From: Chloroflexota bacterium
GTDB taxonomy: Bacteria > Chloroflexota > Limnocylindria > P2-11E
DNA length: 64,000 nt
NCBI GenBank assembly: GCA_005889405.1
Contig: VBFY01000014.1
Span: forward strand, 2,542-66,541
Direction of reading: 5' to 3'
The stretch's first letter is position 1. Every line of letters begins with the position of its first letter. Below, in pieces: positions 17,530 to 22,832 of this stretch. Under the pieces are notes generated by a model. The model had not been told where the DNA came from and ran no database searches. It saw only the letters and a program-made list of their open reading frames with translations. The position numbers and the translations under genes are program-made.

Positions 17530-18071
17530 GCCTCGAGATCATTCGCCTCGACGGCCCGACCTTCGACGCCGCGATCCCCGATCTCGCTGTGATTCTCGCC
17601 GACGCGGTGGCGGGCGGCGCGTCGGTCGGATTCCTGCTGCCGTTCAGTCCAGAGGACGCTGCAACGTGGTGGCAGAGCATCGAACGCGACGTCGTACGTG
17701 GCGACGTGATCGTCGTCGCGGCGCGTCTCGAGCGGCGCGTCGTCGGCACCGCGCAACTGCGCCTCGCGCCGCTGCCGAACGCGCGGCATCGCGCGGAGGT
17801 CGCGAAAGTGCTGGTGCACCGCTCGGCGCGGCGACGCGGGATCGCGACCGCCCTGATGCGCGAGATCGAGCGCCTCGCGTTGTCGCAGGGTCGGACCCTG
17901 CTCGTGCTCGACACGATCGCCGGCAGCGAGGCTGAGCCGCTGTACGTGAAGCTCGGCTGGACGCGGGCCGCGGAGATCCCGAGATACGCCGGCCTCCCCG
18001 ACGGGGAGCTGCGCCCGACGGTGATCTTCTACCGCGACCTGGGCGGGGCGGCGCCGCGCACCTCGCGATGA
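17526..18071 (+). CDS. GNAT family N-acetyltransferase
   Basis: GGASVGF, HRAEVAKVLV, RRRGIA, LLVLDT; ATGA overlap. Confidence 0.9.
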   Translation: MSLEIIRLDGPTFDAAIPDLAVILADAVAGGASVGFLLPFSPEDAATWWQSIERDVVRGDVIVVAARLERRVVGTAQLRLAPLPNARHRAEVAKVLVHRSARRRGIATALMREIERLALSQGRTLLVLDTIAGSEAEPLYVKLGWTRAAEIPRYAGLPDGELRPTVIFYRDLGGAAPRTSR

Positions 18072-18457
18072 ACGCGCCGCAGCTGGACATCGAGCCGCTC
18101 GGGGTCGCAAAACGGGACGGTGACGGCTGGCGCACCACCTGGCGCGTCGCGAACGCGGAACCGGAGGCCGTGCGAATCGTCGGTGCTGTCGCGCCCCACT
18201 CGCAGTTCCGCGGCGAGATCTCGGTCGATCGCGAGTTGCGCGGCAAAGCCTCCACGCAGGTTTCCCTCGTCGTGCGCATCGAGGGAAACGCGGGCGGCGA
18301 GATCGAAAATGCGTTCGTCATTCTTCTGATCGAGCAGGGCGCGGACCGCTGGCGGGTCCTCGCCCGGCTGCGCGTGCCGCTCGATCAGGATGCGCGGCCG
18401 CGACCGCGCGTCGAGGCCATCACGACGCAGCGCGTCGGCTTCTCGGGCGAGCTTTAG
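18068..18457 (+). CDS. Hypothetical beta-strand-rich protein (129 aa)
   Basis: ATGA overlap with GNAT; alternating hydrophobic beta pattern; PHSQF, ENAFVI, TTQRVGFS. Confidence 0.7.
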   Translation: MNAPQLDIEPLGVAKRDGDGWRTTWRVANAEPEAVRIVGAVAPHSQFRGEISVDRELRGKASTQVSLVVRIEGNAGGEIENAFVILLIEQGADRWRVLARLRVPLDQDARPRPRVEAITTQRVGFSGEL

Positions 18458-18466
18458 AGTTCGGCG

Positions 18467-18688
18467 ATGGCAATGACGCAGAAGGACCGCTACCTGATGC
18501 AGCGAATGAAGGGCTGACGAGGCAACTGAAGCCTCGGCTTCGAGGAGACCACGGGTATGGTCTCAAACGTGTTGGGCATGGACCAAGCTGAGCTCACGAA
18601 GCAGCTCAAGTCCTTCAAGACGAAGTACGTCGGCGATCCCGAATGGATCGAGATCCGTGCGGGCTTTCCGAAGTCGTGGCCGATCTAG
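18467..18688 (+). CDS. Putative small selenoprotein with two Sec (UxxxU), 73 aa
   Basis: MAMTQKDRYLMQRMKG-U-RGN-U-SLGFEETTGMVSNVLGMDQAELTKQLKSFKTKYVGDPEWIEIRAGFPKSWPI*; TGA at 18515 and 18527; fills the gap between operon genes; SECIS-like hairpins follow. Confidence 0.75.
18532..18564 (+). promoter_or_regulatory. Two tandem SECIS-like hairpins
   Basis: CCTCG-GCTT-CGAGG (18532-18545) and GAGACCA-CGGGTA-TGGTCTC (18545-18564). Confidence 0.6.
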
Positions 18689-19604: not shown

Positions 19605-20375
19605 TCAGTCCCTAGGCAGCCGCACCTCGGGGTGGCGTAGCACCAGCGGCGTCTTCCCCGACCAGTACACGTCGCGTTGGCCGGTCATCGCCTGGACGTG
19701 TCCGTCCCACTCGAAATTGAAGGCCTCGCAGCCGAGGCGCACCGCGCGCCGGACTTTGTCCTGCGTGGCCTCGTCGCGCGCGAGCTTGTGGATCATCGCG
19801 ATCTGTCGATCGCCGTGGCCCGTGTCCTGCTCCGCGTGGAGCTCGTAGGTCGCGGCGGCGCGCTTGCTGAATCCGTAGTGACCCACCAGTTCCTTGAACA
19901 CGCGAGCGGCCGCGCCGTCCGGTCCGCCGTGCATCGCTTCGACGTACGCGAGGAGCGCGACGCCTTCGAGCGCTGTGCGGTTCTGGCACCCCGAGCGGAT
20001 CATCTCGATCGCCGCGAGCGTGCCCGGCGCGGGATCGGCGCGGTCCGCTTGCTCGCGCGTGATGCCGGCCTCCTCGAGGAACTGCAGCATGATGTCGACG
20101 TGCGTCCGCTCGCCGCCGAGCTCCTCCATGAAGTTCTCCATCACCACGTCCATCAGGTCGTAGTTCCGTTCGCTCGCGACGTTGGTGACGATGTAGCCGA
20201 AGAAGATCGGGTTGGTGCGGACACGCAGGTAATGCTGGATCTCGCCGAGGATGATCTGCTCGCGGGTCCACCGATGATCGACGATGCCTTTAAACCAGGG
20301 ATGGTCCGGCATCCACAGTCCGCGGGCGACCTGCCACAGCTCCGCGACGAACGCGTCGGGCGGGGTCACAGCCAC
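19605..20375 (-). CDS. Heme-oxygenase-like diiron redox enzyme (TenA/PqqC/CADD superfamily)
   Basis: DHPWF, EELGGERTH, YVEAMH, HAEQDTGH metal-ligand pattern. Confidence 0.75.
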   Translation of the reverse strand: MAVTPPDAFVAELWQVARGLWMPDHPWFKGIVDHRWTREQIILGEIQHYLRVRTNPIFFGYIVTNVASERNYDLMDVVMENFMEELGGERTHVDIMLQFLEEAGITREQADRADPAPGTLAAIEMIRSGCQNRTALEGVALLAYVEAMHGGPDGAAARVFKELVGHYGFSKRAAATYELHAEQDTGHGDRQIAMIHKLARDEATQDKVRRAVRLGCEAFNFEWDGHVQAMTGQRDVYWSGKTPLVLRHPEVRLPRD

Positions 20376-22116: not shown

Positions 22117-22471
22117 GTGAAAAGCGTAGCCACTTCAGATGCGTCGCGCTCCAATGGATGTGCCGCGTATCCATGTTTCGCGTACAGCCGCAGGTACAGC
22201 GGGAGGAAGGCGAGCCCGATGCGCTCGTATTGCCTCACATGTCGGAGCTCGTGTCGCCAGAGCGCGTCGGTCGGTTCGCGCGCGAAGATCACCACACGAC
22301 CGAACGTGATCGCGGAATAACCTCGACGCGTGAGCACGAGATGCGCCAGACCTCGGTCGCTCACGTAGAGAAAGCAGCCGTCGCGGAACCGCGGACGCGC
22401 GAACGACAGCCAGCCGAGAACGTGTCCGATCGGATCGGCGTGATGAGCGACTAGCTCGCGCGCCGGCTCAT
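22113..22471 (-). pseudogene. HExxH (DUF4157-like) small protein with apparent 2-nt frameshift near the start
   Basis: AITFGRVV...RHELRHVRQY. Frame extends upstream (ELVAHHADPIGH...) without a start; ATG 22471 is 2 nt out of frame across a (GC)n run. Confidence 0.55.
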
Positions 22472-22785
22472 TGCTCGATGCTATCGACGACCGCCTGAAC
22501 CGCCGCGGTCACCCGCGCTGCGTTCGTGACGCGCGGATCGAAGCGTAGCGTGAGCTTCCGGTCCAGCGCCACCATGCTCACGCTCACCACTCCCTCGATC
22601 TTCCTGCAATCCGTCACGACCTGTGACGCACAGGAGCTTCACATCAGGGCCGATATCTCGAGCGAGACCTCTTCGACATCCGCGGCGTCAGCCGTCGCAG
22701 GCGCGCGCTGCGCGCCGCCCGGGGTCAACACCGGCGAGCCGCATGCGACGACCGCCGCCAGCAAAAGGAAGGGCGCCAAACGCAC
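22468..22785 (-). CDS. Putative selenoprotein: lipoprotein with HMA (MerP/CopZ-like) domain, UxxC site, 105 aa
   Basis: MRLAPFLLLAAVVAC... then VSLEISALM-U-SSCASQVVTDCRKIEGVVSVSM...LTLRFDPRVT...IEQ*; TGA at 22641-22639 occupies the first Cys of the HMA CxxC. Confidence 0.85.
22603..22634 (-). promoter_or_regulatory. Bacterial SECIS element
   Basis: Upper stem CGUCAC-AGGUC-GUGACG with lower stem CCUGUG/UGCAGG; loop 16 nt after UGA. Confidence 0.8.
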
Positions 22786-22832
22786 CGTGTGATTGTGCGC
22801 TTGGCGCCCAAGGTCGCGGTGATCCTGAGGTA

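Follow-up and report, generated by a model that had tools for sequence, protein, structure and literature searches.

Selenoproteins of the thioredoxin fold carry a redox-active chalcogen pair in UxxC or CxxU motifs (U, selenocysteine, Sec), and Sec and Cys interchange between lineages at these sites. A small protein can also act as the dedicated reductant of a single enzyme, as NrdH-redoxin does for class Ib ribonucleotide reductase. Selenoproteins with two Sec residues in a short motif are catalogued in a 2026 review of 119 prokaryotic selenoprotein families (PMC13188914); in the accessible part of that review they include a UxxU family (NF041115), FmdB-family UxxU proteins and TsoB (UxxxxU), small proteins with Cys homologues in which the UGAs lie few codons apart and are presumably both served by one downstream selenocysteine insertion sequence (SECIS). 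Among the heme-oxygenase-like dimetal oxidases (HDOs), the available text of PMC13108848 describes MboB, the redox partner of the HDO MboA, as a separate protein needed for part of the HDO reaction. Here we analysed a 64,000-nucleotide stretch of DNA (the window) from a Chloroflexota bacterium of the Limnocylindria (GenBank assembly GCA_005889405.1, contig VBFY01000014.1, positions 2,542 to 66,541 of the forward strand), in which a small gene with two in-frame TGA codons lies near a gene for an HDO. The best overall explanation of this gene, and one in which we place considerable confidence, is that it encodes a selenoprotein with a UxxxU motif belonging to an HDO-associated family. It resembles the catalogued two-Sec proteins in the closeness of its UGAs, its small product, its Cys homologues and the single SECIS that presumably serves both UGAs. 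It differs from them in its U-x3-U spacing, which has no entry in Table 1 of PMC13188914 as far as that source was accessible, in its all-helical predicted fold, in matching no NCBIfam or Pfam family (NF041115/HMA included) and in having HDO and beta-sandwich neighbours. From the thioredoxin-fold selenoproteins it differs in that it has no beta-alpha-beta fold, three residues separate the pair, and both members of the pair are Sec.

The small gene opens with the ATG at 18467 and runs for 73 sense codons, interrupted only by TGA at codons 17 and 21, which gives the motif G16-U17-R-G-N-U21 followed by S-L-G-F-E-E-T-T-G-M-V-S. The 73-residue product contains no Cys, and 61 of the gene's 74 codons have G or C at the third position. 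The frame, its two in-frame TGAs, its translation and the absence of Cys had all been read from the sequence in an earlier, database-free annotation of this DNA (hereafter the original prediction), and all were confirmed. That annotation also expected gene callers to shorten the product to 43 amino acids (aa) starting from an internal Met. Under translation table 11, the sole open reading frame (ORF) listed in the small-gene frame is indeed a 43-aa piece starting at Met31, and such miscalls dominate two protein collections: a word-based search with the single protein returned 58 matches, C-terminal fragments only, of which 56 were 43-aa calls, and an exhaustive profile search of 1.84 billion protein representatives returned 118 matches, 86 of them 43-aa calls. 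A two-TGA ORF in a G+C-rich gap is unremarkable alone; this one goes beyond chance because both TGAs are conserved in relatives.

Table 1 Coordinates of the features discussed (window positions; strand relative to the window)
Feature	Position	Strand	Description and basis
Putative 73-residue selenoprotein gene	18467..18688	+	Stop TAG 18686-18688; sequence, translation, orthologues, coding-type substitution pattern
UGA 1 (predicted Sec17)	18515..18517	+	TGA in 53/54 loci, TGC (Cys) in L082; Cys in 21/21 full-length homologues spanning the site
UGA 2 (predicted Sec21)	18527..18529	+	TGA in 54/54 loci; Cys in 21/21 full-length homologues spanning the site
SECIS candidate	18545..18564	+	7-bp stem 18545-18551/18558-18564; 6-nt loop CGGGUA 18552-18557
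Variable spacer with two mutually exclusive folds	18518..18542	+	18518-18523/18531-18536 (UGA2 in loop) or 18527-18532/18537-18542 (UGA2 in stem)
129-aa partner gene	18068..18457	+	Predicted 8-strand beta-sandwich; ATG overlaps GNAT TGA stop
Heme-oxygenase-like dimetal oxidase (HDO), TenA/PqqC/CADD superfamily	19605..20375	-	Pfam PF14518 5e-19, PF03070

A six-frame search of 61 related genomes located the gene in 27, spread over 7 of the 23 genera and 2 of the 5 families, and both TGAs were kept in every one of the 27 carriers, down to 41% identity. A scan of one genome per GTDB species recovered 54 loci, with TGA/TGA in 53 and TGC/TGA in the remaining one (L082). The relative and locus counts include three unpublished genomes (G022, which is L031/L057; G031, L046/L100; and G064, L080); when these are left out the scan comprises 51 loci, 50 with TGA/TGA and one with TGC/TGA, and no conclusion depends on them. 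Record titles of the 54 loci are mostly Limnocylindria or Chloroflexota. Further carriers belong to the Dehalococcoidia (contigs of 2.3 and 3.25 Mb) and the Thermodesulfobacteriota (a 5.1 Mb chromosome, L094), together with deltaproteobacterial, Binatia and Dormiibacterota metagenome-assembled genomes (MAGs). Records titled Udaeobacter, Bathyarchaeia and Nocardioidaceae hold sequences resembling those of Chloroflexota and may reflect binning errors. The first codon among orthologues is ATG or GTG.

We then considered how the coding sequence varies around the two TGAs. In a 16-row alignment the invariant residues were R13, G16, U17, R18, N20, U21, S22, F25-E-E-T28 and G30-M-V-S33, joined in the C-terminal part by D57, R64, P68, W71 and P72. 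Mean entropy by codon position across 52 sequences was 0.82/0.42/1.02 in the 11 codons preceding TGA1 and 1.05/0.78/1.26 downstream of the hairpin described below, and Arg (position -4 from TGA1) and Gly (position -1) never change while the third positions of both codons vary. This codon-position pattern, with Arg and Gly retained through synonymous variation, therefore indicates purifying selection on the protein. Conservation on the upstream side of the TGAs, which the original prediction had singled out for checking, was thereby seen both in the alignment and in the codon-position entropies. It had also named Trp, Arg and Gly as residues that would speak against Sec; these never occur at either position, where TGA or Cys is found instead, apart from one outlier that lacks the pair (P0160, discussed below). 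TGA has not been reassigned here, because it terminates the adjoining GNAT gene and, of the 53 orthologues whose 3' end is complete, 14 use it as the small gene's own stop after the conserved C-terminus. Consensus errors, a further concern of the original prediction, are ruled out by the recurrence of the TGAs in more than 50 independent assemblies.

Uninterrupted homologues provide a complementary view of the same two positions. The CxxxC homologues anticipated by the original prediction do exist: in all 21 full-length homologues that span the motif, CxxxC falls at exactly the two Sec columns, and when 16 Cys and 6 Sec forms are aligned together, only 8 columns are invariant, the Sec/Cys pair among them. 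One Cys form, P0060, retains the ...FEETTGMVS string of the Sec clade. The Cys clade comprises 603 clusters at E <= 1e-3, and its members are about 71 aa long with CxxxC and a ...F-P-x tail; Sec-clade members are about 73 aa long with a ...[WF]-P-x tail and come mainly from Chloroflexota/Limnocylindria. The NCBI organism name was Thermoplasmata archaeon in all 10 Cys-clade rows bearing one. Cys-clade members are acidic (net charge -6 to 0, isoelectric point 4.5-6.6), contain no Pfam domain and are almost always annotated as 'hypothetical protein'. A Cys-clade profile search for longer proteins gave no HDO fusion among the matches listed, which is weak evidence; the longer matches were three proteins of 133-141 aa that are N-terminally over-called ORFs.

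Bacterial SECIS elements, as formalized in the bSECISearch criteria, are stem-loops with a G in the apical loop and 16-37 nt between the UGA and the loop. Downstream of the two UGAs the small gene contains a hairpin that begins 15 nt past UGA2 and 27 nt past UGA1, is present in both the minimum free energy and the centroid folds, and has a G in its apical loop as the bacterial SECIS definition requires. None of the 7 stem pairs differs among the distinct sequences compared (50 of 50), even at synonymous sites. Five codons (E, T, T, M, V) place their third base within the stem, and that base is constant in each of them; third positions do vary in the codon just 5' of the stem, in the loop Gly codon and in the codon just 3' of the stem. 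The residues encoded by the hairpin vary in the Cys homologues. We attribute this to constraint on the RNA, since synonymous sites are frozen only inside the stem while the Cys homologues vary there. The spacer upstream of the hairpin can adopt two mutually exclusive folds. In the form with UGA2 in the loop, 75.3% of cells were paired and both sides had changed in 4 of 6 pairs, and for the two-helix structure overall 35 cells had changed on both sides, compared with 18.4 +/- 2.9 in shuffles; the form with UGA2 in the stem was the choice of RNAalifold. An Rfam 15 search at E <= 10 gave chance-level matches only (best 13.9 bits at E 6-8).

The machinery for Sec incorporation, whose presence the original prediction had left to be checked, is complete in the source genome (G000, a MAG of 3.05 Mb and 96% completeness), in which selA (517 bits), selB (341 bits), selD (333 bits) and tRNA-Sec (74 bits) all scored over their cut-offs. 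Among the 27 carriers selA was over cut-off in 24; it was fragmented in G020, and the searches of G025 and G031, which are 80% and 86% complete, did not recover it. It was present in 4 of 5 distant carriers. Among 22 genomes of three class families where the small gene was not found, selA exceeded the cut-off in only 3. Together, the conservation of TGA or Cys at both positions, the hairpin and the Sec machinery support the central proposal of the original prediction, a two-Sec UxxxU protein, and on this sequence evidence the small gene very probably encodes a selenoprotein.

Two further Sec candidates were noted in the same genome. The selD gene itself (G000:C99:38989-39909, L011) has one in-frame TGA (G-U-G-A-K-L-G), with a 7-bp hairpin with a GGUC tip, read by eye, 26 nt downstream. 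A lipoprotein-like ORF with an HMA/MerP-like domain (22468-22800, minus strand) has a TGA at 22639-22641 in the motif M-U-S-S-C, and a 6-bp hairpin with the loop AGGUC begins 10 nt past it. This ORF was picked by eye from a noisy read-through ORF scan of the window and then checked; its scores to HMA (21.9 bits, cut-off 24.8), NF041115 (27.5) and MerP (26.5) are all below the cut-offs. It probably corresponds to the second Sec gene 4 kb away that the original prediction had put forward, and the HMA/MerP-like ORF with its M-U-S-S-C motif and SECIS-like hairpin makes that suggestion plausible. By eye, the selD and HMA-like hairpins have 6-7 bp and an apical GGU. The 27- and 15-nt spacings of the small gene lie within the genome's own range, since those of selD and the HMA-like candidate are 26 and 10 nt.

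We next examined the genomic association of the small gene with the HDO gene. The HDO is a 256-aa protein; among solved structures it is most similar to CT610/CADD and 4-aminobenzoate synthase (E about 1e-11). Neighbour counts were made by targeted BLAST, and an HDO gene lay in the flank of 48 of the 54 loci, mostly tail-to-tail directly past the Sec gene, at 58-97% identity; in the window itself the YjbR gene and a 176-aa gene are inserted between the two. Across the 61 relatives the HDO (E <= 1e-20) and the Sec gene occurred in exactly the same 27 genomes, and the 129-aa gene upstream persists in 6 genomes without the Sec gene and HDO. The Cys clade was examined at 80 metagenome loci, in 79 of which the small gene was located. 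A same-strand HDO followed it in 70 of these 79, starting -3 to +23 nt from the small-gene stop in 50 of the 70. The Cys-clade HDO is about 300 aa long, with an N-terminal zf-C2H2_9 domain ahead of TENA/PqqC. The loci shared no neighbour besides HDO, and a tblastn search found a homologue of the 129-aa protein near the Cys-clade gene in 0 of 80. The family is thus genetically tied to HDO in two domains of life, and this co-occurrence makes a functional link between the small protein and the HDO probable.

Individual genomes illustrate the pairing. Two congeners, G011 (L187) and G021 (L188), have no Sec gene between the 129-aa gene and YjbR, which are directly adjacent there, and no HDO was found in them at E <= 1e-20. 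In G033 (L186), from another genus, the Sec gene is reduced to its N-terminal part up to the first TGA, and again no HDO was found at E <= 1e-20. These three, all among the 6 genomes that keep only the 129-aa gene, are natural losses. One Sec-clade locus, L100 (G031, an unpublished genome), has the arrangement of the archaeal Cys clade instead of the tail-to-tail one: its HDO gene comes immediately after the small gene and in the same orientation.

The HDO shares with CADD and NePabS (PDB 1rcw, 8va9, 9pj4) the fold and the metal-ligand motifs, with E about 1e-11 to 1e-12. It differs from them in scoring below the TIGR04305 cut-off and in having an invariant Phe at the Tyr27 position. Assignment of the HDO as a CADD-type self-sacrificing p-aminobenzoate (pABA) synthase was considered and rejected, with 53.8 bits against a TIGR04305 cut-off of 200 and Phe in place of Tyr27. 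To our knowledge, CADD requires no small partner. The Phe that aligns with the sacrificial Tyr27 of CADD is Phe28, invariant in 22 of 22 sequences; in CADD, according to the accessible part of the published work, the Y27F change abolishes pABA formation. The invariant Cys130 of the HDO aligns with a Cys of CADD. The Sec-clade HDO has no zinc-finger domain, unlike the Cys-clade HDO, and PDB 4lqx, a TENA/THI-4 domain protein of unknown function, is close to the Cys-clade HDO only (E 1.9e-89). The HDO in the window belongs to an uncharacterised HDO subfamily.

The predicted structure of the small protein agrees with the helical, non-thioredoxin fold expected by the original prediction. AlphaFold2, run with Cys in place of Sec on 16 rows, gave four helices (5-20, 25-36, 40-53 and 58-64) and no strand (predicted local distance difference test score, pLDDT, 85.1; predicted template-modelling score, pTM, 0.63), with residue 17 closing helix 1 and residue 21 within a turn. 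A thioredoxin-like beta-alpha-beta fold with two-residue spacing was not seen, the model having four helices and the pair being three residues apart. Foldseek searches with the small protein gave a best E of 0.25 and no convincing solved fold, and the best match in a VIA fold search was a designed protein (Z 6.8), with helix-turn-helix (HTH) domains at Z 5.9 or below. The ESM Atlas, searched with the Cys homologue P0112, held two unnamed clusters at 0.76, below lead level. Homodimer prediction for Cys homologues scored 0.14 against a mark of 0.42; it gives no answer and was used neither for nor against binding.

No family in Pfam-A or NCBIfam release 20, which includes curated selenoprotein models, matched the Cys-substituted protein at E <= 1, and 10 Cys homologues gave sub-threshold noise only in Pfam and NCBIfam; the suggestion of the original prediction that no characterised family is like it thus holds for the curated families of both databases. 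In its accessible part, PMC13188914 lists no UxxxU, UxxxC or CxxxU motif, its sole 'xxxU' string there being the UxxxxU of TsoB. Literature searches combining selenoprotein with UxxxU, or Limnocylindria with selenocysteine, returned nothing in the text available, and the supplementary lists of PMC13326102 and PMC12013277 could hold the family. Within the resources searched, we rate the small gene as a putative new selenoprotein family with a new motif, fold and enzyme context.

The 129-aa gene, like the HDO gene a neighbour conserved across phyla, is found upstream of the small gene in the same orientation in 53 of 54 loci; the remaining locus is cut by a contig end. It is near the small gene in 50 loci and 2.2 kb off in 3, and the gap between the two is a few bases in most loci. 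AlphaFold2 modelled its product as an 8-strand beta-sandwich (pLDDT 95.8) with one invariant His (His44); only generic beta-sandwich fold matches were obtained (best Z 9.1), and no Pfam or NCBIfam family. Its ATG overlaps the GNAT stop (ATGA, 18068-18071), and its own stop (TAG, 18455-18457) lies 9 nt ahead of the small-gene ATG. The GNAT, 129-aa and Sec genes are thus tightly packed on one strand. Downstream is a YjbR-domain ORF (Pfam PF04237, 44.7 bits) with a possible start at GTG 18690. The leaderless start that the original prediction had assigned to the small gene found no support, although it is not disproved: the TAGAGT-N6-ATG signature does occur, but the TAG within it serves as the stop of the 129-aa gene. 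Co-transcription with the 129-aa gene seems more likely than a leaderless transcript, because of the 9-nt gap to the upstream stop and the conserved pairing.

Public sequencing runs were consulted as contigs, which cannot show transcription, starts or ends. In the soil DNA run X2, summed contig depth in the bin 18516-18559 was 1128, compared with roughly 10-90 in most flanking bins. The jump reflects the invariant hairpin segment, which is common to contigs from many organisms, and the family therefore appears abundant in that soil. In the RNA-library run X20, a 1006-nt contig covers 17900-18564 at ~93% identity, spanning the 129-aa gene and reaching 98 nt into the small gene, with no difference at 18341-18576 among the rows listed. 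Coverage in the RNA-library runs X18 and X19 was limited to the YjbR region.

These observations can be assembled into a working model. SelB and Sec-tRNA would read both UGAs, at codons 17 and 21, as selenocysteine. The single invariant hairpin in the coding sequence would direct both events and could remain folded as the ribosome reads first one UGA and then the other. The resulting protein would be small and four-helical, with U-x3-U at the end of helix 1. We infer that the Sec/Cys pair is the working site of the small protein and serves the HDO. As a diselenol/diselenide donor, or a dithiol donor in the archaea, the pair could re-reduce or activate the HDO dimetal centre, a role resembling that of NrdH-redoxin. 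The diselenide redox switch or soft-metal site proposed in the original prediction is hypothetical. A redox-donor role for the HDO is put forward tentatively. It is favoured over other roles because redox catalysis is what Sec is usually selected for and HDOs consume reducing equivalents during turnover, and because, in the accessible parts of the sources, at least one HDO (MboA) depends on a redox partner; MboB is likened to the small protein by role description only, and no homology between them is claimed. The protein may then, at a probability short of even, be the first selenoprotein accessory of an HDO, its U-x3-U pair (C-x3-C in Thermoplasmata) reducing, activating or metallating the enzyme and one SECIS decoding both UGAs.

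Other roles for a selenoprotein tied to an HDO have to be weighed against electron donation. The pair might instead handle metal, U-x3-U or C-x3-C binding Fe, Mn or a soft metal and loading or protecting the HDO dimetal site, perhaps together with His44 of the 129-aa protein. Pairs of Sec or Cys coordinate metals well, the accessible part of PMC13188914 lists two-Sec metal-binding selenoproteins (UxxU, NF041115), CADD-type relatives are described in the available literature as requiring defined Fe:Mn loading, and the 129-aa partner, besides its one invariant His, has weak fold matches that include PCuAC-type Cu(I) chaperones, though these are not significant. We nonetheless consider metal handling unlikely: a monomeric site would need more than two ligands, Pfam and NCBIfam give no match to a metal-binding family, and the 129-aa homologue is near the Cys-clade gene in none of the 80 loci. 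That the small protein is itself consumed or loaded by the HDO, as a RiPP-like (ribosomally synthesized and post-translationally modified peptide) or sacrificial substrate providing a protein-borne residue or as the carrier of a thiol- or selenol-bound intermediate, is improbable given that it is predicted as a folded domain (pLDDT 85.1), that Phe is its sole invariant aromatic residue (the aromatic near position 59 being Y, W or F) and that costly Sec would be odd in a consumable. In its favour, the nearest characterised relatives of the HDO, CADD and NePabS, use a protein-derived Tyr according to the accessible part of the sources, the invariant Phe of the HDO means that a protein-derived substrate would have to come from elsewhere, and the tight gene pairing fits. 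Regulation of the neighbouring genes by a redox-sensing HTH protein would accommodate the weak fold matches, which are mostly to GerE/LuxR, sigma-70 region 4 and the DtxR N-terminal domain; but scores of this size (HTH Z 5.9 or below) do not rise above the noise expected of small helical models, the would-be recognition helix (40-53) is the least conserved part of the protein, the Cys clade is acidic and no HTH Pfam model matches, so that we regard such a regulator as quite improbable.

Two further readings deny that a selenoprotein is made at all. The UGAs might not encode Sec, the locus being a pseudogene or three short ORFs of which only the 43-aa tail is translated, or being read through without SelB as Cys, Trp or Gly. 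In favour of this, UGAs 12 nt apart should decode inefficiently, and gene callers annotate the 43-aa ORF. What makes this very improbable is the purifying selection on residues preceding and between the UGAs, the strict retention of both TGAs across at least two bacterial phyla on large contigs, the Cys at both columns in uninterrupted homologues combined with a frozen hairpin and complete Sec machinery, and the use of TGA as the true stop of the same gene in 14 of 53 orthologues. A non-coding structured RNA in which the ORF is incidental would explain the extreme nucleotide conservation at 18545-18564; it has a negligible probability in view of the three-base substitution periodicity and conservative replacements along all 73 codons, the existence of uninterrupted protein homologues (24-41% identical to the Cys-clade reference) and the absence of a matching Rfam family.

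Several observations weigh against an HDO-associated, two-Sec selenoprotein. For the protein family, one 59-aa predicted protein of the protein collection (P0160) aligns with residues 22-54 but lacks a Cys or Sec pair; it has the string ...L-G-F-E-E-T-T-G-M-V-S... in common with the Sec clade, an unrelated N-terminus and a different, basic tail. In the copy of the congener G008 (L048/L040, C178:17051-17268), one nucleotide is missing from the Phe25 codon, a base of the hairpin loop has changed and the otherwise invariant Met31 and Pro72 are substituted, and the HDO of G008 is intact; this copy is either decaying or an assembly error. For the hairpin, the stem is invariant and hence offers no covariation to prove pairing, and the loop CGGGUA differs from the E. 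coli GGUC type. For the link with HDO, four Sec-clade loci with at least 1.6 kb of downstream flank have no HDO nearby, an HDO orthologue was not found in G064, G066 or G067 and is located elsewhere in G063, and in the Sec clade the small gene and HDO are convergent rather than in one operon. The relatives are not independent of one another, and fragmented MAGs lose adjacent genes jointly. A 2026 mini-review, in the part available, states that the HDOs studied so far require no protein effector. As for expression, the X20 contig could derive from a bicistronic transcript of a related strain, but it is no proof of one, DNA carry-over being possible.

UGA recoding by a SECIS is well known, but none of the resources searched contained this small-protein family, its U-x3-U motif, its helical fold or its enzyme context. 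Records of 54 species-representative genomes contain the gene, which is also abundant in metagenomes from soil, and it is annotated only as a 43-aa fragment, which for so abundant a gene amounts to a systematic annotation gap. As a clean natural case, the locus can be used to study how two close UGAs share one SECIS, and it illustrates an RNA element freezing a protein sequence, the Sec clade keeping FEETTGMVS where the Cys homologues vary. Its pairing with an uncharacterised HDO subfamily provides a testable lead to function and to a possible protein partner of enzymes thought to need none. If the small protein is indeed an HDO accessory, a two-component class of HDO would be common in soil Chloroflexota and in archaea, hidden because gene callers shorten the partner.

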